A stretch of DNA of 64,000 bases from Candidatus Magasanikiibacteriota bacterium. GTDB lineage: Bacteria > Patescibacteriota > Patescibacteriia > Magasanikbacterales > UBA922. Positions 10,686-53,534 of this stretch are shown in pieces. Numbering within the stretch: position 1 is the first letter of the stretch; every line of letters begins with the position of its first letter. Where the stretch lies: contig JBDGRL010000002.1 in assembly GCA_042218065.1 (NCBI GenBank), forward strand, positions 15,539-79,538, read 5' to 3'. Made by a program: the position numbers and the translations under genes. The notes under the pieces were generated by a model. That model saw nothing but the letters and a program-made list of their open reading frames with translations. It ran no database searches and was not told the DNA's origin.

Positions 10686-11807
10686 TTACTCACGTATAGG
10701 CATAACGATATACTTGTAATCACTCTTACCTTCCTCTTTAAAAAGACATGGTGATTCAGAGCTGTTCATCTTAAATTCTACTTCTTCGCTCATATTCTGT
10801 AACCCATCCAAGACGTATCTATGATTTAATAAGATAGAATTATCTTCGCCCGTTATATCAGCTTCTACTTGGTCTTCGTGCTCTCCTTTTTGAGTACTAT
10901 CAGAAGATATCTCTATGTTATTATCACTAGAATTCAAAATAAACTCAACTGAGTTTACTCCAGCTGTAGTAAAAAGACTAGCGGCTCTAATCTTCTGAAT
11001 CATTACATCCACCGGAAAGGAAGCTTCACTAGAAAATGAGTCAGGTATAATTTCTGCATAATCTGGATAATCTCCTTCAACTAACCTGCTAGATAATTCA
11101 AAGTCACCATACCGCATAATCATCTGATTTTCATTAAAAGAAATCCTCACTTGAGACTCGTCAGTTAGACTTTGAGCATTTGATATCAGTCTAGCCATCT
11201 CACTAACAGTAGAACCTGGAACTATACACTCAAGCTCATCTTCCCCTTGTGCTACAGACATTTTCTTTTCTGCTAAACGATAAGAATCAGTAGCTGCAAG
11301 AACTAACCCATCATGACGGTCACCAAAAAAACCAAAAAACACACCGGAAAGTTCTGGTCTAATCTCATTTTGAGCTACAGCTATTTCTGTATTTTTTAAA
11401 GATTGACGAAAAGGTTCTGCTAATAAAGAATAAGTAAACTTTTCTTCTACCTCAGGGATTACAGGATACTCTTCAGGATCTTCACCTTTAATTTTAGTAC
11501 TAGAAGTACCACAAGTTACTGATAATTCATTACCTTCTAATTCTATTTCAACTTTCTCATCATTTAAAAGATGAATATAATCCTTCAACGTACTTGCAGG
11601 AACAGTAAACTCACCTTGTTCTTCTACTTTTGCTCTAAAGGTAGATTTTACTGTTAACTCCAAATTTGTTGCTGTCAGTTCAACTTTACTTTCTCCAACC
11701 TCGATCAATATGTTTTTTAATATTGGTAAGTTAGGATTCTTATCAACCACACCACTCACTTGATCCAATGAGTTAGCTAAATTTTCTCTGGTACATGTGA
11801 GCTTCAT
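10686..11807 (-). CDS. dnaN: DNA polymerase III beta sliding clamp
   Basis: 373 aa with the three-domain clamp architecture, N-terminus MKLTCTRENLANSL...PILKNILIEV, immediately downstream of dnaA. Confidence 0.9.
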   Translation of the reverse strand: MKLTCTRENLANSLDQVSGVVDKNPNLPILKNILIEVGESKVELTATNLELTVKSTFRAKVEEQGEFTVPASTLKDYIHLLNDEKVEIELEGNELSVTCGTSSTKIKGEDPEEYPVIPEVEEKFTYSLLAEPFRQSLKNTEIAVAQNEIRPELSGVFFGFFGDRHDGLVLAATDSYRLAEKKMSVAQGEDELECIVPGSTVSEMARLISNAQSLTDESQVRISFNENQMIMRYGDFELSSRLVEGDYPDYAEIIPDSFSSEASFPVDVMIQKIRAASLFTTAGVNSVEFILNSSDNNIEISSDSTQKGEHEDQVEADITGEDNSILLNHRYVLDGLQNMSEEVEFKMNSSESPCLFKEEGKSDYKYIVMPIRE

Positions 11808-12076
11808 GTGTTTATTTAATTAATATTTATAACTGATTATTTTTTAAAATTTTATGTATATTATTAGTGTTGTGAATTGTGGGGATAACTTTTATTTTGC
11901 TTTAATCTTAGTCATACTTCTGGATTTATACCACTTAACAATAGATCTAACAACAAGTTAATAATGTGTGTACGAGATCGAACCTTATTTTGTCAGCTGT
12001 GGATTGCTGTTTATGGGATGTTAATGGAAAGTACAGTTTTATTCAAGCTATTCACAGCTTATCCACTTGTGGATTT
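11808..12076. promoter_or_regulatory. oriC-associated region (dnaA-dnaN intergenic) with DnaA boxes and an AT-rich unwinding stretch
   Basis: DnaA-box-like 9-mers: TGTGGGGATAA (11877), TGTGGATTG (11998), TTATCCAC (12059) and TGTGGATTT (12068). A highly AT-rich stretch lies at 11808-11870. Confidence 0.55.
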
Positions 12077-13468
12077 AATATTACTATACAGTCTTTGTTT
12101 GACTAAATCTATATCTTCTTTCAAATCTAAATCTTCTTCTATCTTTTTTTCTATTTTTTCATAGCCGTGAATAGCAGTAGTATGATCCCTACCACCAAGT
12201 TCGTTTCCAATCTCTGGGTAAGACATATCCAGCTCTTCTCTTAGTAAAAACATTGCTATTTGTCTAGGTAAAGAGTATTTCTTTTTTCTGCTTTTACCTA
12301 GTATTTCTTCTAATTCTATATCAAAAAAATCAGCAACTGTATTTAATACTTCTCTGGATGTAAGTGTTTTCTTTTGGTTCTGAGATTTGAAGCTATCTAG
12401 TACAGATTTTATCGAGTCTTCTGTAGGTTTGAAGTTCTTTAATTGATGGTATGCAATAATTTTATTTAAAGCACCTTCAAGTTCTCTGATGTTACTTTGC
12501 ACTAAAGTTGCTATCAATTCAAGTAACTCTCTATTAATTTCAAAATCCTTTTGTTGGCATTTTTTATCAAGTATAGCAACTCTTGTTTCTAAATCTGGTG
12601 AATCTACATCAGCTATCATACCCCATTCAAATCTACTTTGAAGCCTATCCTCTAAGGCTGGGATAGCTTTTGGAGGTCGGTCTGAGGATATAACTATTTG
12701 TTTATCATTTTGATACAGTGAGTTGAATGTGTGGAAAAACTCTTCTTGTGTCTGTTCTTTTCCACTTATAAATTGGATATCATCTATAAGCAGTAGGTTT
12801 ACATCTCTATATCGATCTTTAAACTCATCAGCCACGCCATCCTTAACTGATCCAACATATTCACTAGTAAATTTCTCTGCACTTACGTATAGGATTTCTT
12901 TTTGTTTATTTTTCTTTATTATCTCATTAGCGATTGCTTGTAGTAGATGTGTTTTTCCTAAACCTACATCACCGTAAATAAATAATGGGTTATATGCTTG
13001 TCCTGGTTCTTCTGCTACTGCTTTAGCGGCTGCGTGTGCTAGTTCATTACCTTTACCAACTACAAAAGTTTCAAAGTTATATTTATGACTGATACCATAT
13101 TCTTCCGCAACATCTTTAACTTCTTTTTCTTCTTTCTGTTTATATTGAGGGTTTTCAGGTGTTGACACTTCTTTTGTTTCTTTTGGTTGGCATTTCATAT
13201 CTTGTATCTTGTTTTTCTTTTCTATTTCATACTCAACTTTTTTCACTTTGATACCACTTTTTTCTTCAAGTAAATTCTTTATCTCATTATGGTATTTCTT
13301 TTCAAGCCAGCTTTTTATAAAACTGTTTGGCACGCAAATACAAACTTTACCCTCATCTTCGTCTACTTCACCGATTCCAGTATTTTGGAACCAAGTAGAA
13401 AAACTAGCTTTAGAAACTTTAAGTTCAAATTCAGCTAAAACAGATTGCCAAACCTCTGTTTTTTCCAT
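12059..13468 (-). CDS. dnaA: Chromosomal replication initiator protein DnaA
   Basis: Walker A GDVGLGKTHLLQAIANE, the AAA+ core, and the C-terminal helix-turn-helix DNA-binding domain (LPRQIAMFLLREELDMSYPEIGNELGGRDHTTAIHGYEKIE). Confidence 0.95.
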   Translation of the reverse strand: MEKTEVWQSVLAEFELKVSKASFSTWFQNTGIGEVDEDEGKVCICVPNSFIKSWLEKKYHNEIKNLLEEKSGIKVKKVEYEIEKKNKIQDMKCQPKETKEVSTPENPQYKQKEEKEVKDVAEEYGISHKYNFETFVVGKGNELAHAAAKAVAEEPGQAYNPLFIYGDVGLGKTHLLQAIANEIIKKNKQKEILYVSAEKFTSEYVGSVKDGVADEFKDRYRDVNLLLIDDIQFISGKEQTQEEFFHTFNSLYQNDKQIVISSDRPPKAIPALEDRLQSRFEWGMIADVDSPDLETRVAILDKKCQQKDFEINRELLELIATLVQSNIRELEGALNKIIAYHQLKNFKPTEDSIKSVLDSFKSQNQKKTLTSREVLNTVADFFDIELEEILGKSRKKKYSLPRQIAMFLLREELDMSYPEIGNELGGRDHTTAIHGYEKIEKKIEEDLDLKEDIDLVKQRLYSNIKSTSG

Positions 13469-39423: not shown

Positions 39424-40005
39424 ATGATTTTATCTGATCGCGATATAAAAGAAGAAATGGATGAAGGTAATATTGTTATTGATCCTTTCAATGAAGAAAA
39501 TCTGCAGCCGGCATCTTATGATCTGCATTTGGACAAGCATTTTCTAGTTTTTGATGAGATTCAACATCATGTTATCGATCCTAAGCAGAATCTAGATGAT
39601 AAAATGAAAGAAGTAGAGATCGACGAAGATGATGCTTTTATCATTCATCCGAATGAGTTTGCACTGGGCATGGTCAAGGAGGTGACTGGTGTTTCTGATA
39701 AAATTGCAGGGAGGCTGGAAGGTAAAAGTTCTGTAGGCCGGCTTGGGTTGTTAATTCATGTGACGGCTGGTTTTTTAGATCCTGGAAATGAGCTGAAGTT
39801 GACTCTAGAGCTTCACAACACAGCTCCGATGCCAATTAAATTGTATTATAATATGCCGATAGCACAGATTGCCTTCGAAAAGCTTAGTGATTCTTGTTCT
39901 GACCCTTACTCAGAAGGAAGAGAGGAAGATAAATATTACGGCGATATGAAGCCCAAAGCTTCACAGATGTTTAAAAACTTTGATGAAGATCAGGGATGGG
40001 TATAA
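39424..40005 (+). CDS. dcd: dCTP deaminase
   Basis: The N-terminus MILSDRDIKEEMDEGNIVIDPF is the classic Dcd start, and the C-terminal beta-barrel (dUTPase-like) fold pattern is present. Confidence 0.85.
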   Translation: MILSDRDIKEEMDEGNIVIDPFNEENLQPASYDLHLDKHFLVFDEIQHHVIDPKQNLDDKMKEVEIDEDDAFIIHPNEFALGMVKEVTGVSDKIAGRLEGKSSVGRLGLLIHVTAGFLDPGNELKLTLELHNTAPMPIKLYYNMPIAQIAFEKLSDSCSDPYSEGREEDKYYGDMKPKASQMFKNFDEDQGWV

Positions 40006-40541
40006 AACTAGGTATTGTAGGAAAAATAGGCAGTGGAAAAACTACTGCAGCTAAGTATCTACAACAGGCACATAATTTTAAAACTATTAAGTTTTCTGGA
40101 TTTGTTCGAGATATTTTAGACAGGATGCATTTACAGCAGAATCGGGATAATATGTCCAAATTATCAACTTCTCTTAGAGAAAGTTTTGGTAAGGACATAT
40201 TTAGTCGTGTGCTCATAAAAGAATCAAAAAACAAGGATAGAGTGATATTAGAAGGCGCCAGAAAACAAGAGGATTTATCCAATTTTAAAGACAGAGAAGA
40301 TTTTTATTTACTTGCCATAAGTGCCGACCAGGAAATTAGATATAATAGAGTTTCATCTCGTAATGAGAATGAAGATGATAAAGGTAAAACTTTTGAAGAA
40401 TTTAAACAAGACGAGAAAAAAGCTACTGAAACTGAAATTGCTTCTTTAATGAAACTAGCAGATTATACAATAAGCAATAATGGAACATTGGCAGAATTTC
40501 AAGAAAAATTAGATAAATTAATAGCTAAATTAAATGAATGA
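39996..40541 (+). CDS. P-loop nucleotide kinase (CoaE/dNMP-kinase-like) embedded in the pyrimidine cluster
   Basis: Walker A MGIKLGIVGKIGSGKTTAAKYL, a 181-aa size, and a lid-like region. Its position between dcd and dut suggests a (d)NMP kinase role. Confidence 0.55.
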   Translation: MGIKLGIVGKIGSGKTTAAKYLQQAHNFKTIKFSGFVRDILDRMHLQQNRDNMSKLSTSLRESFGKDIFSRVLIKESKNKDRVILEGARKQEDLSNFKDREDFYLLAISADQEIRYNRVSSRNENEDDKGKTFEEFKQDEKKATETEIASLMKLADYTISNNGTLAEFQEKLDKLIAKLNE

Positions 40542-41433
40542 GAAATTTAGAGAAAATAGGTATGTAGCAAGTTCGGAATCTGAATATACTGAATTAACAA
40601 GAGAAAATAGAGAAGAGCTAAAAGAAGAATTAAAAGAATCTTTGCCTGAATTAAAGAAACTTTTCTTGGAGGAACTTGAATCTTGTCCTTTTATAAGTGA
40701 TAATTTGATTGATAATATTAAAGATAGGGTTGACGAAGTAAATTTTAATCTAATTAATGAAATTCAAAAAGAACATACAGGATTGTTTAGGGGTATTTAT
40801 GATTTTATAACTGATGAAATTAAACTGAAAGAAAAGGCTAACAAAGGTACTATTATTCATGAATTACTGCACGCTGTAAGTAGTAGATTAATGAACAAAA
40901 AATCCCTAGAAGAAGGAGAGTTTAAAGTATTAGTCGGGGGTCTTAGTCCTGGAATAAAGTTAGATTTAGAAAAAGTAGATTTTGATTCAGAAGATGAAAT
41001 TAAAAATTTTTTTGAACATCCCGAATATGTAAGATGGCTAGAAGAAGGGGTTACTGATAAGTTTACCAGAGATATTTTTGGAGAAGAGGGGAGTAAAAAT
41101 TATGACCCTTATGTTTATTTACTAGAAGCTATACAAGAAGAGGCTGGAATTTCAGACGAGGAACTGGCAGAGGCATACTTTAAACCTTTTAAAAAATCTG
41201 AACAAAGTGAATATAATACAGAGGCAATTAGTAATTTCTTCAGTGCTATAAATGAGCGTTATACTTCTGGAATTATTTTTTATATACATGTAGTTTTAGG
41301 ATATGAATATACTCCTAAAGAAAGAGAAGAAATTGATAGTATTGATAAAGCGAAAGAATTTATTGAAGAAGTAGAAAAGGAATATAGTGATCGAAGTTTA
41401 ACTGATTTGGTAGAAGATTTGAAGCAACAGTGA
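40534..41433 (+). CDS. Hypothetical acidic protein with an HExxH motif
   Basis: A 299-aa Glu-rich protein; TIIHELLHAVSS contains HExxH; otherwise unrecognised. Confidence 0.35.
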   Translation: MNEKFRENRYVASSESEYTELTRENREELKEELKESLPELKKLFLEELESCPFISDNLIDNIKDRVDEVNFNLINEIQKEHTGLFRGIYDFITDEIKLKEKANKGTIIHELLHAVSSRLMNKKSLEEGEFKVLVGGLSPGIKLDLEKVDFDSEDEIKNFFEHPEYVRWLEEGVTDKFTRDIFGEEGSKNYDPYVYLLEAIQEEAGISDEELAEAYFKPFKKSEQSEYNTEAISNFFSAINERYTSGIIFYIHVVLGYEYTPKEREEIDSIDKAKEFIEEVEKEYSDRSLTDLVEDLKQQ

Positions 41434-41456
41434 AGCTAATTTAATAAAAGGTCTAT

Positions 41457-41882
41457 ATGAAAGTTAAAGTAAAAAAACTAAAAGGAGAAGCAAAAATTCC
41501 CAGCTTTGCGCATGAAGGTGATGCAGGAATGGATATTTATTCGACAGAGGATAAAGTAATCACCCCAAAAAACAGGGAGACGATTGAGTTGGGTTTCGCA
41601 ATGCAGTTTCCGTCAGATTACATGGTTATTTTTAAAGATAGAAGCAGTTTGGCTTCGGAGTATGGGGTTCATACTTTAGCGGGAGTTATAGACTCGGGGT
41701 ATAGAGGTGAGTATAAAGCAGTATTGGTTAATTTGGGGGATGAAAGTTTTGAGGTTGAAACAGGACAGAAAGTAGGGCAGATGTTATTTTTACCAAGACC
41801 TGAAATAGAGGTAGAACAAGTAGAAGAATTATCAGATTCTATTCGAGGAGAAGGAGGGTTTGGAAGCACAGGTAAGTTTTAA
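41457..41882 (+). CDS. dut: dUTP diphosphatase (trimeric dUTPase)
   Basis: Motifs AGMDIYS, GVIDSGYRGE and the C-terminal RGEGGFGSTG (motif V). Confidence 0.9.
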   Translation: MKVKVKKLKGEAKIPSFAHEGDAGMDIYSTEDKVITPKNRETIELGFAMQFPSDYMVIFKDRSSLASEYGVHTLAGVIDSGYRGEYKAVLVNLGDESFEVETGQKVGQMLFLPRPEIEVEQVEELSDSIRGEGGFGSTGKF

Positions 41883-41891
41883 TTAAATAAT

Positions 41892-43673
41892 ATGCAAGAA
41901 TACTCAGACAAAGAGCATAAAGCTTTACTTAATTTTGTAACAAGCACGGATTCAAATATTTACGCAGTAAAGAATTTACGTCCAGAAGTTTTTGGTGCTT
42001 TTGGTTCCTTCTTTTCGCGCAGCCCGAAAGATGTACGTGATCATATATTGGATGCAGTTAAAGGTGAAATTCGAGGTTACGAGATGGAGGGTGGAGAAGA
42101 AAGATTGAATAAATTAGCTACAAGCTATGAATTTCTACAAAAAAGATCAAAACTAGACTCTGGTGAAGACAGTGGAGGTATTAAGCAAGAGTTGAAAGAT
42201 ATTTTGAATAAAAAACGAGGGGTTAGAGCTGAGCTTGAAGCTTCTATTTTTGAACCACCAATGAAGGCTTTAGAGTCTGGTTTAGAGAAATCTCAGTCTT
42301 TTTTTGAAAAGTATTATGGAACTTATGGTCACAAATCTATTGCAAATACTGTTTGGATTTCATTTGTGGCAAATGATGTCAGTCAACTTTTTGCCCGAAA
42401 ACTGGCTGATGACCAACTTGCATTTTTTATTGAACAATCCACACGTTTTGTCGAATTTGAAGATAATTATTACAAGGATCCTAGAATTATGGAAAGTGAA
42501 TATAGCGATCTCTATAATGATACCTTAGAAACTATGATTGAATACTATAACAAATTTTATGAGCTAGCTAATAATTTCTACCAAGAAAAAATACCATTTA
42601 ACGACTGGCTAGACCAACAATCAGATAGGGTTAAAGAAAAGTCTGATAGCTATCAGGAAAGAAAATATGAAAGAGAACTAAATGGAAAAGCTTTGGATAT
42701 CGCAAGATTTTTGTTGCCTCAAGCTATAAAAACTAATTTAGCGTGGATCCTAGACGCTAGAAGTACGGAGTTTGATATAGCAAGCTGGAAGGGGCACCCA
42801 TTGTCCGAGATACAAGAATCAGCTGAAAAAATAGAACAAGCTGGCGGAGAAATTGCACCTTCTTTGCTTAAATACACAGAAAAAAATGATTTTTATGAAG
42901 AAAAGTTGCATGAATATGGTGGTGATTTAGAATTAGACTTGGAAGATAAAGAGATTGAAAAAGGGGTAGAAATTGTATCTACTCCCGAAGACTGCTTTGA
43001 GAAAGTGGTAGCACACATCTTAAAGCAAAATAATATAGGTAAATTTAGTCAGTTTTTCCAAAAAGCGAAAAATATGACTTATGATGAAAAGCTAGATATT
43101 TTAGAGCGTACAGTAAAAAATAGAGGTGAATACGATGAGTGGGTGGGAGCAAATGAGGAGATAGATTTAGAAAAAATCGTGGTAGAGATTAAAACTGATG
43201 TGGGAGCACTGAGGGATATTAGAAGACATCAAAAAAATGATAGAGGAGAGCATAGATATTCGCTAGATATGGGGTATTATCGTCCTGATGTAGTTGATAA
43301 AATGAACAAAGAAGCCCAAAATTTATTCGATAAAACTATGGATATTGCACATGAAGCTGAGAAAGAAATTAGAAAAGACTTCCCTTTTGCGGTTCAGTAC
43401 TTGATTCCTATGGCATCCATGACAACTATTACTATGAGTATGGGGTTCGATCAGTTGCAATACTTTATCTACACTAGGTCAACTCCAGAAGGTAATTTTT
43501 CTTATCGAGAAGATACATTTAATTTAACAGAAGCATTAGTAAAGAAATTTCCTTGGTTGTTGGGAATGAAAGAATACCCTGAAGATAAGGACATCAAAGA
43601 AGTTTATGATAATTGTAGTTGGCAAGATTTGTTTATCTCTTTAAGTACTGACGAGACTGGTTTACATACTTAA
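41892..43673 (+). CDS. Tandem-duplicated ThyX-like (flavin-dependent thymidylate synthase fold) protein with non-canonical catalytic motifs
   Basis: The first-half segment GHKSIANTVWISFVANDVSQLFARKLADDQLAFFIEQSTRF aligns with the ThyX core [41 protein letters not shown], but ADD replaces RHR. The second half has VEIVSTPED...IVVEIKTDVGALRDIRRHQKNDRGEHRYS, with RHQ in place of RHR and the Ser position not conserved. Length is 593 aa against about 220-250 for canonical ThyX. Confidence 0.5.
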   Translation: MQEYSDKEHKALLNFVTSTDSNIYAVKNLRPEVFGAFGSFFSRSPKDVRDHILDAVKGEIRGYEMEGGEERLNKLATSYEFLQKRSKLDSGEDSGGIKQELKDILNKKRGVRAELEASIFEPPMKALESGLEKSQSFFEKYYGTYGHKSIANTVWISFVANDVSQLFARKLADDQLAFFIEQSTRFVEFEDNYYKDPRIMESEYSDLYNDTLETMIEYYNKFYELANNFYQEKIPFNDWLDQQSDRVKEKSDSYQERKYERELNGKALDIARFLLPQAIKTNLAWILDARSTEFDIASWKGHPLSEIQESAEKIEQAGGEIAPSLLKYTEKNDFYEEKLHEYGGDLELDLEDKEIEKGVEIVSTPEDCFEKVVAHILKQNNIGKFSQFFQKAKNMTYDEKLDILERTVKNRGEYDEWVGANEEIDLEKIVVEIKTDVGALRDIRRHQKNDRGEHRYSLDMGYYRPDVVDKMNKEAQNLFDKTMDIAHEAEKEIRKDFPFAVQYLIPMASMTTITMSMGFDQLQYFIYTRSTPEGNFSYREDTFNLTEALVKKFPWLLGMKEYPEDKDIKEVYDNCSWQDLFISLSTDETGLHT

Positions 43674-43683
43674 AAATAATTTA

Positions 43684-44157
43684 ATGATAGCCCACATAGC
43701 AGCAATCTCAAAAAACAATTGTATCGGCAAAGATGGTGATTTACCTTGGTATATACCAGAAGATATGAAGCATTTTAAGCGCTTAACTCAAGGTAAAACA
43801 GTTTTGATGGGCAGAAAAACTTGGGAGTCAGTTCCAGAGGAATATAGACCTTTGCCTAACAGAAAAAATTTAGTTCTTACCAATCAAGGTGATTATAAAG
43901 TACCCGATGAAGTAAAGGTTTATGATAATATCCCCCAAGCATTAAAAGATCATAAAGAAGATGAAGTTATGGTAATAGGAGGTGAATCTGTATATAAAGC
44001 CACTATGGATAAAGCAGAGAGGTTATATATAACACATGTAGAACAAGAAGTTGATGACTGTGATGCATACTATCCTAAAATTAGAGGAGATGAGTGGCAA
44101 GAGATTAAAAGACAAGAGCATGATGGTTTTTCTTTTGTCACTTATAGGAGGCTATGA
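43684..44157 (+). CDS. folA: Dihydrofolate reductase
   Basis: MIAHIAAISKNNCIGKDGDLPWYIPEDMKHFKRLTQGKTVLMGRKTWESVP...RPLPNRKNLVLT matches the DHFR signature. Confidence 0.85.
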   Translation: MIAHIAAISKNNCIGKDGDLPWYIPEDMKHFKRLTQGKTVLMGRKTWESVPEEYRPLPNRKNLVLTNQGDYKVPDEVKVYDNIPQALKDHKEDEVMVIGGESVYKATMDKAERLYITHVEQEVDDCDAYYPKIRGDEWQEIKRQEHDGFSFVTYRRL

Positions 44158-44873
44158 AAAAAGGTGAGTTTATAATGGTTGATGGAGTTGATGGTGCAGG
44201 CAAGACTACAATAATAAATACTTGGAAAAAATTTTTGAGACAGAATAATCGGAAAATATTTGGTATAAGGGAATATTGGCAACAAAACCAGAATCATCCG
44301 GAGTTTGAACAGCTTAAAGATTATGATTTCATCTTTTCAGCTGAGCCAACTTCTGTTTGGACAGGAGCGGCACTGCGCAAAGAAATGATTAAACAAGATT
44401 CAGATTATTCAGGTAAGGCAATAGCCGAAGCTTTTAGTTTAGACCGGCTTGTACTATATAAGCGCTTACTTTTAAAGTTATTAAATGAAGATGTGAGTAT
44501 AATTCAAGATCGAGGGATCAGCACTTCTTTATGTTATCAGCCGCTACAATCTACTGAGTTGACGAGAGAAAAAGTAGCTAATCTGGAAGGAAATGCGTTT
44601 GCTTTGAAGAATAACCCAGAATATTTAATTTTGGCGGATCTACCGATTGAAGATGCGCTAGAACGTCTAGATTTACGTCAGCAACAAGATGATTCTGTGT
44701 TTGAGAAAAGGAAATTTTTAAACAGGGCTCGAGAAACTTTTTTATCGAAAGAATATCAAGATTATTTTATAAAGCAAGGTACGGAGATAAAAAAATTGGA
44801 CACCTCTGTAAACATTGATATAATGAAAGAGAAATCTGTCAGTTTACTGCAAAATATATTAAATATTAACTAA
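44154..44873 (+). CDS. tmk: Thymidylate kinase
   Basis: P-loop FIMVDGVDGAGKTT and the DRGISTSLCYQ motif (DRY/S-loop-like). Its start overlaps the folA stop. Confidence 0.75.
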   Translation: MKKGEFIMVDGVDGAGKTTIINTWKKFLRQNNRKIFGIREYWQQNQNHPEFEQLKDYDFIFSAEPTSVWTGAALRKEMIKQDSDYSGKAIAEAFSLDRLVLYKRLLLKLLNEDVSIIQDRGISTSLCYQPLQSTELTREKVANLEGNAFALKNNPEYLILADLPIEDALERLDLRQQQDDSVFEKRKFLNRARETFLSKEYQDYFIKQGTEIKKLDTSVNIDIMKEKSVSLLQNILNIN

Positions 44874-48526: not shown

Positions 48527-49072
48527 TTAGTTTATGGTGATGTTTTCCTCTAAGATAGAATATTTTAGTATATAATAAGACAAAAATTCATTTTTTATGT
48601 CGCCTTTTATGGCCATTTCGGCTGCTTTTTCTAGATTAAAAAATTTCACCTCCTCTACCATCTCCCCCTTGTCTTCTTCAATAGAACTTTCCTCTAGATT
48701 TTTAGCGATATAAAAATATACATCCCATACAAAGTAGGAAGAATCTTCATTTTTCTTGTATAGCTCAAGCTGATTCGCTTTATATCCAGCTTCTTCTTGT
48801 AGCTCTTTTTGGGCTGCTTCCTCTGGTGTTTCATCTTGTTCTATTTTTCCTGCCGGCAAAAACCACGTCGGTTCAGAATACCTGAATCTTTCCTCTTTTA
48901 TTAAAAGTAATTGCCCTTCTTCGTTAAAAGCAAATACATTTACACTGGGAGAGCGATAACACAATTCATAAGTAGCAGTTTCACCGTCTTCATATTCTAC
49001 TTTTTGAGTTTGAATGCTGAATATTTTACCTTCGTATTGTGTTTCCGGTTGTTTGATTGGTTTTGGTTGCAT
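48527..49072 (-). CDS. NUDIX hydrolase
   Basis: The Nudix box LPAGKIEQDETPEEAAQKELQEEAGY is present. Confidence 0.8.
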   Translation of the reverse strand: MQPKPIKQPETQYEGKIFSIQTQKVEYEDGETATYELCYRSPSVNVFAFNEEGQLLLIKEERFRYSEPTWFLPAGKIEQDETPEEAAQKELQEEAGYKANQLELYKKNEDSSYFVWDVYFYIAKNLEESSIEEDKGEMVEEVKFFNLEKAAEMAIKGDIKNEFLSYYILKYSILEENITIN

Positions 49073-53015: not shown

Positions 53016-53534
53016 TTATTCCTCTAGGGTAAATCGCAAGGGCTTATCTGCCCATTCTTTAGCATAATCTACACCTATGCGTGGACTAGAGTTTATCTGG
53101 TCTTTTGAAATTTTATTTTTATTATCTTCGATCCATAAACCTGTTTTTTTATTTGCCGGTTTATTATTATAAGACCTATTAATATTTAGTTCTCGAGTTA
53201 ATATACCCGGACCATCGTACTCTCCTGCAGATCTTATAAGCACGGCGCAGGGGGTATTTTTTTCTTCTGTGACTATATTGAGCATATCGTACATGCCATA
53301 GATTAAATATACATACCAGACTCCGGGTGGGCCATACATGACTTTGGTTCTGTCAGTTTTTCCTGAGTGAGCATGGCAAGCTTTGTCTTCTTCCCCTAAA
53401 TATGCCTCAGTTTCCTTTATTTTTAATTTTTTTAAACCTTGTTTTTCTTGTTTGACTATATGTTTCCCTAATAGGTCTTTAACAATTTTAATTGTATCTT
53501 GATTAAAATACTCTTGACCTAAGATTTTATTCAT
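53016..53534 (-). CDS. DNA-3-methyladenine glycosylase (MPG/AAG family)
   Basis: ETEAYLGEEDKACHAHSGKTDRTKVMYGPPGVWYVYLIYGMYDMLNIVT...AVLIRS matches the methylpurine glycosylase fold. Confidence 0.8.
   Translation of the reverse strand: MNKILGQEYFNQDTIKIVKDLLGKHIVKQEKQGLKKLKIKETEAYLGEEDKACHAHSGKTDRTKVMYGPPGVWYVYLIYGMYDMLNIVTEEKNTPCAVLIRSAGEYDGPGILTRELNINRSYNNKPANKKTGLWIEDNKNKISKDQINSSPRIGVDYAKEWADKPLRFTLEE

Follow-up and report, generated by a model that had tools for sequence, protein, structure and literature searches.

A tandem ThyX-fold protein that is probably the thymidylate synthase of an ordinary dTTP-precursor operon in a Candidatus Magasanikiibacteriota bacterium

What does a bacterium make with a ThyX-like protein that carries two ThyX folds in one chain and a complete catalytic motif in neither, and why should such a protein be encoded beside a dihydrofolate reductase (DHFR)? 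These questions are raised by a 593-aa protein encoded in a 64,000-nt stretch of contig JBDGRL010000002.1 from a Candidatus Magasanikiibacteriota bacterium (hereafter the window; all coordinates are window positions). A first-pass annotation had described a collinear, partly overlapping block of seven genes, namely dcd, a P-loop kinase gene, an open reading frame (ORF) with an HExxH motif, dut, the ThyX-like gene, folA and tmk, and the ORF coordinates, spacings and family matches bear this description out. Among the readings it offered for the ThyX-like protein, a pseudo-heterodimeric ThyX that still makes deoxythymidine monophosphate (dTMP) is the best supported by the distribution of residues, the gene neighbourhoods and the fusions described below. 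In all likelihood the protein would be a flavin- and methylenetetrahydrofolate-dependent dTMP synthase, assembled as a pseudo-tetramer with two live sites and encoded in an ordinary operon for deoxythymidine triphosphate (dTTP).

The two halves of the protein extend over residues ~1-345 and ~346-593, and PF02511 matches it in two stretches with 96.3 bits against a cut-off of 24.8. We compared the halves with hhalign using half profiles built from a 28-member family plus 136 representatives of a wider clade. The N-half matched the C-half with a probability of 96.6 % (E 4.9e-10) and each half matched the ThyX of Thermotoga maritima with ~97 % (E ~1e-10), which agrees with the earlier proposal of a tandem duplication. 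With the 28-member alignment alone, hhalign did not see the internal duplication (probability 1.8 %), and direct searches of the PDB gave marginal ThyX matches (E 0.88 for the protein query and 0.03 for the 28-member profile). The structure prediction that the first-pass annotation had called for gave, with 28 homologs, an AlphaFold2 model with a mean predicted local distance difference test (pLDDT) of 86.2 and a predicted TM-score of 0.83. Every significant Foldseek match of this model in the PDB is a single-domain ThyX or PolB chain covering half of the model, with TM-scores on the target of 0.65-0.71 for ThyX chains and 0.59-0.63 for PolB (PDB 4P5B); no solved structure of a tandem ThyX was found among them. 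The segments modelled with low confidence (144-151 and 185-187) are the His53 and Ser88/Arg90 loops, and flexibility of the ThyX substrate loop has been described (PMC3498832). Taken together, the profile comparisons and the predicted model indicate that the 593-aa protein is a genuine tandem duplication of ThyX. Its unusual length is explained by a charged-rich insertion of ~35 residues in the N-half (residues ~90-125), shared among the 28 aligned relatives only with one protein (P0009).

We assigned the catalytic residues from family and profile alignments to T. maritima ThyX (TM0449), whose numbering is used throughout and whose reference sequence was verified to be identical to PDB 1O26; invariance was judged in the 28 family members. 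The RHRx7S motif is complete in neither half, and the full motif is obtained only with both halves combined (Table 1). The replacement of the N-half RHR by ADD, as first read, was one residue out of register, and RHR aligns to D173-D174-Q175. The reading of the C-half as RHQ with the Ser of the motif not conserved was right: this half has R445-H446-Q447 and is without the Ser88/Arg90 loop. The Ser of the N-half motif, which had been overlooked, is intact: S183 lies exactly seven residues past DDQ and is followed by R185. Residues E181, S183, R185, R272 and R529 are invariant in the family, position 186 is Tyr or Phe, and the C-half segment residues R441, R444, R445, H446 and E453 are likewise invariant.

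Table 1. Equivalents of T. maritima ThyX residues in the two halves of the 593-aa protein
T. maritima residue	N-half	C-half
His53	H147	not conserved
Arg74	R169	R441
Phe77	–	R444
Arg78	D173	R445
His79	D174	H446
Arg80	Q175	Q447
Glu86	E181	E453
Ser88	S183	deleted or unconserved
Arg90	R185	not conserved
Tyr91	F186	Y456
Arg147	R272	Q502
Asn163	D288	G518
Arg165	R290	D520
Arg174	S298	R529
His178	H302	E533

The same partition is found in the wider tandem clade. Ser88, Arg90 and Arg147 are each present in the N-half of 136/136 representatives, while the C-half has Arg78 and Arg174 in 136/136, Arg80 in 134/136 and His79 in 129/136. The complementary positions have changed in a consistent manner, with mostly Asp at the Arg78 position of the N-half and mostly Gln at the Arg147 position of the C-half. 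Residues that each survive in exactly one half and are invariant across a large clade point to selection for catalysis and not to decay. The alignments indicate that the catalytic motif is divided between the halves and not lost.

Canonical ThyX is a homotetramer with four active sites, each built from several subunits. In this tetramer the uracil pocket is made by more than one monomer, and in the PBCV-1 enzyme monomer A contributes Gln75 and the Arg174 equivalent and monomer B contributes Ser88/Gln89 (PMC3498832). Arg174 activates deoxyuridine monophosphate (dUMP), and Ser88, Arg90 and Tyr91 help to pass on the methylene group from the flavin carbinolamine (PMC8316439). Based on the subunit assignments in PMC3498832, PMC5954106 and PMC8316439, we propose that the C-half would give the flavin- and nucleotide-binding Arg-His pair (R445, H446) and the dUMP-activating R529, while the N-half would give the S183/R185/F186 loop, R272, the equivalents of Arg165 and His178, and H147, the His53 equivalent. 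Two fused chains would then form a dimer that mimics the tetramer, with two complete and two dead sites, the assembly and its stoichiometry following from the partition of the residues. With the C-half in the role of monomer 'A', all lost residues would fall in the dead sites. Compared with canonical ThyX, the 593-aa protein has the same fold in both halves, the same residues (Arg78, His79, Glu86, Ser88, Arg90, Arg147 and Arg174) and the same pathway position between dut and tmk; it differs in having two folds per chain, a partitioned set of residues, Gln for Arg80 in both halves and, as expected from the partition, two sites per particle and not four.

Three observations weigh against such an enzyme. 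The protein scores 43.9 bits with the ThyX equivalog model TIGR02170, under the cut-off of 87.9; Tyr91 is Phe (F186); and Arg80, one of the residues in contact with dUMP (PMC3498832), is replaced by Gln in each half throughout the long subfamily of DPANN archaea and halophiles to which the protein belongs. In that subfamily the C-half reads R-R-H-Q, compared with Q-R-H-R in the wider clade, and the Arg at position 77 is invariant. It is conceivable that this residue (R444) is a compensating change for the lost Arg80, which is a conjecture, and we read the changes at Arg80 and position 77 as a probable local rewiring of the phosphate pocket.

To place the protein we looked at the extent of the clade. 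At E<=0.001 an exhaustive profile search returned 2,882 cluster representatives, of which 400 reach E<=1e-30; many of these 400 are 470-600 aa long and cover ~480-550 of the 555 profile positions. A member from Myxococcota used as query returned 6,335 proteins, mainly of ~500 aa and from Aenigmarchaeota, Diapherotrites and Woesearchaeota. The 136 tandem representatives were drawn from DPANN archaea, bacteria of the Candidate Phyla Radiation (CPR), Myxococcota, jumbo phages and one glaucophyte; the CPR members come from Woykebacteria and from a 'Patescibacteria group bacterium' entry, and the eukaryotic member is a glaucophyte transcriptome. The 593-aa protein sits in a longer subfamily (~555-595 aa) whose named members are all DPANN and in which the C-half equivalents of Asn163 and Arg165 are also lost. 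It is 100 % identical to a database entry (P0001) that carries the NCBI name 'FAD-dependent thymidylate synthase' and that NCBI places in a Candidatus Magasanikbacteria (CPR) metagenome-assembled genome.

Tandem forms are also found in the jumbo phages, namely in Tunturiibacter phage Tunturi_5 (gp50, 518 aa) and in Vibrio phages BONAISHI and vB_VmeM-Yong, where they share 20-24 % identity with the query and cover its residues 132-556. In Tunturi_5 (locus L006, PP885688.1, 4857-6413) the tandem thyX adjoins a dCMP deaminase gene, with a dUTPase gene nearby. The tandem ThyX of the Yong phages is annotated merely as a hypothetical protein. These viral proteins are two-domain like the 593-aa protein and differ from it in their low identity and viral setting.

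The first-pass annotation had also considered a known long ThyX clade with demonstrated dTMP synthesis. Such a clade is indeed known and widespread; as to its activity, the searchable open literature mentions the tandem form just once, where Chloroflexi except Dehalococcoides are reported to have the domain-duplicated ThyX only and the form is described as 'not characterized' (Valas & Bourne 2009, PMC3224940). The duplicated ThyX of Chloroflexi and the ~500-600-aa proteins of DPANN and CPR genomes named 'FAD-dependent thymidylate synthase' have the same architecture as the 593-aa protein, with the complementary pattern in 136/136; the latter differs from the other tandem forms in its longer subfamily, the R-R-H-Q motif, the lost Asn163/Arg165 of the C-half and its CPR host, although the nearest relatives of the protein are nanohaloarchaeal. 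Tandem ThyX is a known, database-annotated and scarcely studied enzyme form, to which the 593-aa protein adds one member.

The gene neighbourhoods bear on whether these proteins make dTMP. We counted neighbours by iterated hidden Markov model (HMM) searches of the flanks of 40 loci with tandem ThyX relatives, and used these counts instead of a plain tblastn context scan, which missed divergent tmk genes. A tmk gene, often directly downstream, is present in 25/40 loci, followed by serine hydroxymethyltransferase (SHMT) in 8/40, a UPF0200-type kinase in 5/40, dcd in 3/40, folA and NUDIX genes in 2/40 each and dut in 1/40, and the Pfam-annotated loci agree with these counts. The neighbours of DPANN and CPR tandem ThyX that are shared with the block are tmk, dcd and the kinase, with SHMT in the relatives. 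Tandem ThyX is also found fused at its N-terminus to NUDIX (P0025, P0071), Tmk (P0129) and dUTPase (P0151) domains. Five further members of 640-700 aa (P0168, P0174, P0175, P0184 and P0205) have N-terminal extensions without a Pfam match.

The complete genome of Nanohalovita haloferacivicina is informative in this respect. Its reported thymidylate synthase is 'ThyA BNXNv_0141', and the genome is said to lack FolA (PMC10266531). By coordinates, BNXNv_0141, which adjoins glyA (BNXNv_0142), is the tandem ThyX P0016 of our set (locus L001, CP107255.1 120510-123568). The gene labelled ThyA therefore appears to be a tandem ThyX and not a ThyA, and the tandem form appears to be the sole thymidylate synthase reported in this organism. 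A tandem ThyX in a genome without FolA fits a flavin-dependent enzyme that releases tetrahydrofolate. A pair of SHMT and tandem ThyX genes is also present on a contig labelled as a metagenome-assembled genome of the gammaproteobacterium Colwellia polaris (locus L009, JBLGBK010000002.1); its SHMT is 87 % identical to that of Nanohalovita and its ThyX 62 % identical to the 593-aa protein, and the contig is probably mis-binned nanohaloarchaeal DNA.

The block is best read as one operon for dTTP-precursor synthesis from dCTP to dTDP. The genes are spaced by -10 nt (dcd/kinase), -8 (kinase/HExxH), +23 (HExxH/dut), +9 (dut/thyX), +10 (thyX/folA) and -4 (folA/tmk). In the predicted pathway, Dcd would convert dCTP to dUTP, Dut would convert dUTP to dUMP, the 593-aa ThyX would convert dUMP to dTMP, and Tmk would convert dTMP to dTDP.

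Does the adjacent folA gene contradict a ThyX that releases tetrahydrofolate? DHFR reduces dihydrofolate made by FolC, or salvaged folate. At the locus of the closest ThyX homolog (L038; P0002, 70 % identity), the DHFR gene is clustered with MptE-like, FolP and FolC genes, and the FolA of the block is 42 % identical to this DHFR. In Nanohalococcus, folA is found beside the thymidylate synthase gene and glyA (PMC10266531). The presence of ThyX and DHFR side by side, which had been presented as a paradox, is no contradiction, because DHFR sits with folate-synthesis genes at the first of these loci and Nanohalovita has ThyX without FolA. FolA here probably acts on dihydrofolate or folate that is newly synthesised or salvaged; it would yield tetrahydrofolate from these sources without recycling a ThyX product.

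The kinase matches the solved members 3lw7 and 3h0k of the UPF0200/SSO1041 'AdkA-like' P-loop kinases (E ~2e-13 over residues 7-175). Library searches gave AAA_17/AAA_18 and weak matches to CoaE, dNK and DNMK, together with matches to the phrog_139 deoxynucleoside monophosphate (dNMP) kinase (9e-18) and to the kinase-like domain of anti-phage dCTP deaminases (PADLOC dCTPase, 7e-17); the score against NF006226 is 82 bits, under the cut-off of 189. Homologs of the kinase lie beside tandem ThyX or dcd at five loci (L012, L015, L020, L032 and L041). Those of Woesearchaeota (26-27 % identity, E ~1e-19 to 5e-21) adjoin tandem ThyX, and at the DPANN locus L041 the homolog overlaps a dcd gene whose product is 48 % identical to the Dcd of the window, with a ThyX-tmk pair 2.3 kb away. 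In the ordinary dTTP clusters of DPANN archaea, the kinase is repeatedly found with dcd and ThyX. It is most likely a (d)NMP kinase for deoxycytidine nucleotides that works with Dcd, and it may turn dCMP into dCDP, so that salvaged deoxycytidine nucleotides would enter the pathway.

The HExxH ORF is found in 0/40 of the flanks, has no family match in Pfam, NCBIfam, PHROG or PADLOC, and its only match among 5.8 billion proteins is itself; the AlphaFold2 model from the single sequence has a pLDDT of 39.8. Its two short motifs (Table 2) are reminiscent of the gluzincin pattern HExxH...WLxEG. The 8-nt overlap with the kinase gene suggests that it is co-transcribed. We regard it as a lineage-specific insertion with no demonstrable tie to nucleotide chemistry.

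How do other explanations fare? That the tandem ThyX is a dead or regulatory paralog, with thymidylate supplied by thymidine salvage or by a ThyA gene at another site in the genome (which would also account for folA), is improbable. Such a protein might be expected to lack a complete RHRx7S in either half and to score under the TIGR02170 cut-off, as is the case here, and the adjacent folA and an 'atypical' ThyX of Corynebacterium glutamicum, described in the titles of PDB 3FNN and 3GE9 as dispensable for thymidylate synthesis, point in the same direction. However, a dead protein would not be expected to keep each universal catalytic residue in exactly one half, invariant across a very large clade, nor its gene to lie between dut and folA-tmk in a tight operon or to be fused to dUTPase and Tmk. 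The organisms that carry the tandem form also argue against it, since in Nanohalovita, which lacks FolA, no thymidylate synthase besides the tandem form is reported (PMC10266531) and Chloroflexi besides Dehalococcoides carry solely the duplicated form (PMC3224940). Neither a ThyA (PF00303-type) nor a second ThyX was found among the scanned ORFs of the 64-kb window.

A second explanation concerns the origin of the genes, which we examined for thyX by comparison of loci L001, L003, L007, L008, L030, L038 and L040. The 593-aa protein shares 61-70 % identity with nanohaloarchaeal proteins and only 45-52 % with those of other DPANN members, and a neighbor-joining tree places it inside the nanohaloarchaeal group in 48/50 bootstrap replicates. 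Most simply, this would mean that thyX passed from a nanohaloarchaeon to a halophilic CPR bacterium. The tmk gene has no meaningful similarity to nanohaloarchaeal tmk, and folA, at 42 % identity to its L038 counterpart, is less close than thyX; since neither is similarly close, at most thyX itself was transferred.

That the whole block is a cassette derived from a phage or an archaeon, mobile or transferred not long ago, and serves as an auxiliary nucleotide-metabolism or defence module and not in housekeeping, is a little less probable still than a dead paralog. The nesting of thyX among nanohaloarchaeal proteins, the jumbo phages with tandem ThyX beside dCMP deaminase and dUTPase, and the likeness of the kinase to a domain of anti-phage deaminases would be in keeping with it. 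The distant tmk and folA limit any transfer to thyX, however, and at 0.32-0.35 the G+C content of the block does not depart from the range of the window, no integrase, transposase or phage structural gene was found in or beside the block in scans of the window ORFs, and its neighbours are the housekeeping gene gatB downstream and a surface protein gene upstream. The Dcd is of the dUTPase-fold housekeeping type (TIGR02274), whereas the defence system has a zinc deaminase. We rejected a defence system as such, as only the kinase resembles the PADLOC model, in its kinase-like domain alone, and Dcd is of the housekeeping type.

The least probable explanation, to which we give very little credence, is that the tandem ThyX-fold enzyme makes a C5-modified pyrimidine, for example hydroxymethyl-dUMP or a modified dCMP, with the kinase and the HExxH protein in the same pathway. 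Phage hypermodification employs enzymes of the ThyA fold, such as the T4 gp42 dCMP hydroxymethylase and the SPO1 dUMP hydroxymethylase, together with the T4 gp1 dNMP kinase and further modification genes. The likeness of the block to these systems is superficial and consists of a thymidylate-synthase-like enzyme near a dNMP-kinase-like gene (phrog_139), whereas the enzyme of the window has the ThyX fold, is chromosomal, and has no modification genes in its block. A precedent for altered specificity is PolB of polyoxin biosynthesis, a UMP/dUMP methylase (PDB 4P5B) that shares the ThyX fold and is an example of this fold accepting other nucleotides; PolB, however, is a single-domain protein in an antibiotic cluster, and the block consists of dut, tmk, dcd and folA without biosynthetic-cluster genes. 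The change of Arg80 to Gln in both halves and the additional invariant R444 also imply a phosphate or nucleotide pocket that is remodelled relative to canonical ThyX.

Against these stand the invariant Arg174 equivalent and Ser88/Arg90 loop, and the linkage or fusion of the family to Tmk, dUTPase, NUDIX, SHMT and Dcd. In Nanohalovita the tandem ThyX is apparently the sole reported thymidylate synthase (PMC10266531). The two proteins that had suggested a modified nucleotide give it no support, the HExxH protein being an orphan seen nowhere else and the kinase recurring beside dcd and ThyX in cellular DPANN genomes. The locus is chromosomal and not part of a phage, sharing its contig with dnaA and dnaN, and the block is without glycosyl-, amino- or other hypermodification-type transferases. 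The related proposal, that the nucleotide specificity or the product of the long subfamily has shifted (for example to a non-thymine C5-modified pyrimidine) and that the UPF0200 kinase is the matching dNMP kinase, seems to us just as remote, and it is kept at all because of the Gln for Arg80 in both halves and the Arg at position 77.

The coordinates of the seven genes, all on the + strand, of the motif segments and of the neighbouring features are given in Table 2.

Table 2. Features of the dTTP-precursor operon and its surroundings in the window
Feature	Coordinates	Strand	Details
dcd, dCTP deaminase, 193 aa	39424..40005	+	TIGR02274 187.5 bits, PF22769 156 bits
UPF0200/SSO1041-type P-loop kinase, 181 aa	39996..40541	+	AAA_17/AAA_18; PDB 3lw7/3h0k E 2e-13
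Acidic orphan HExxH ORF, 299 aa	40534..41433	+	HELLH at 109-113, WLEEG at 168-172
dut, dUTP diphosphatase, 141 aa	41457..41882	+	TIGR00576 140.5 bits, PF00692 87.7 bits
Tandem ThyX, 593 aa	41892..43673	+	PF02511 96.3 bits, two stretches
N-half motif segment R169-KLA-D173-D174-Q175-LAFFI-E181-Q-S183-T-R185-F186	42396..42452	+	RHR lost; Glu86, Ser88, Arg90 kept, Tyr91 = Phe
N-half second block: R272 (Arg147), D288/R290 (Asn163/Arg165), H302 (His178), Ser298 at Arg174	42693..42800	+	
C-half motif segment R441-D-I-R444-R445-H446-Q447-K-N-D-R451-G-E453	43197..43262	+	Arg74, Arg78, His79, Glu86 kept
C-half second block: Q502 at Arg147, R529 (Arg174), S537-Y538-R539	43386..43514	+	
folA, dihydrofolate reductase, 157 aa	43684..44157	+	PF00186 179 bits
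tmk, dTMP kinase, 239 aa	44154..44873	+	TIGR00041 93.7 bits (cut-off 83.25)
dnaN and dnaA, adjacent	10686-13468	-	
Secreted or surface protein, 1014 aa	36199-39243		directly upstream of the operon
Stand-alone NUDIX hydrolase and methylpurine-DNA glycosylase	48527-49072 and 53016-53534	-	within 10 kb downstream of the operon

The contig of the block is bacterial and chromosomal and also carries dnaA, dnaN and polA; besides DnaA, DnaN and PolA the window encodes trigger factor, a class A penicillin-binding protein, single-stranded DNA-binding protein and ribosomal protein S6. The adjacent dnaN and dnaA genes and a minimum of the cumulative GC skew at ~12-18 kb make it probable that the replication origin region of the chromosome lies in the window. 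Of the seven operon proteins, four have an isoelectric point of 4.5-4.9, and these acidic proteins together with the halophilic relatives suggest a hypersaline origin. The 1014-aa upstream protein is made of repeated CNDGxDNDGDGxxDxxDPGC modules with Thr/Val-rich linkers, CarboxypepD_reg domains and C-terminal membrane segments. NUDIX genes, one of which lies downstream of the operon, neighbour tandem ThyX also in the nanohaloarchaeal loci L003 and L040.

Chlamydia has a ThyX together with a DHFR. The ThyX of Chlamydia trachomatis (CT632), at ~529 aa of roughly double length, is said to have been characterised biochemically by Griffin et al. in 2005 and may belong to the tandem clade. CT632 has been expressed and assayed (PMC3498832), and chlamydial ThyX sequences are described as too divergent for inclusion in ThyX phylogenies (PMC6171736). 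We found no Chlamydia entry among the cluster names looked up. If CT632 does belong to the tandem clade, dTMP synthesis by this architecture has already been demonstrated.

For annotation, these results mean that the block may be labelled a standard dCTP-to-dTDP operon and that the alarm of a modified base can go. A large share of DPANN archaea appear to have tandem ThyX as their thymidylate synthase, and the form is also found in CPR bacteria and Chloroflexi. From the partition of its residues one would predict a natural, obligate pseudo-heterotetramer in which half as many sites as usual are formed; this would offer a test of the three-subunit model of the ThyX active site and is relevant to the design of ThyX inhibitors. 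The transfer of thyX, if true, would be an exchange between a nanohaloarchaeon and a CPR bacterium, ultra-small symbionts that share hypersaline habitats. In the unlikely event that the specificity has changed, episymbiotic CPR bacteria and nanohaloarchaea in brines would carry a non-canonical DNA base.

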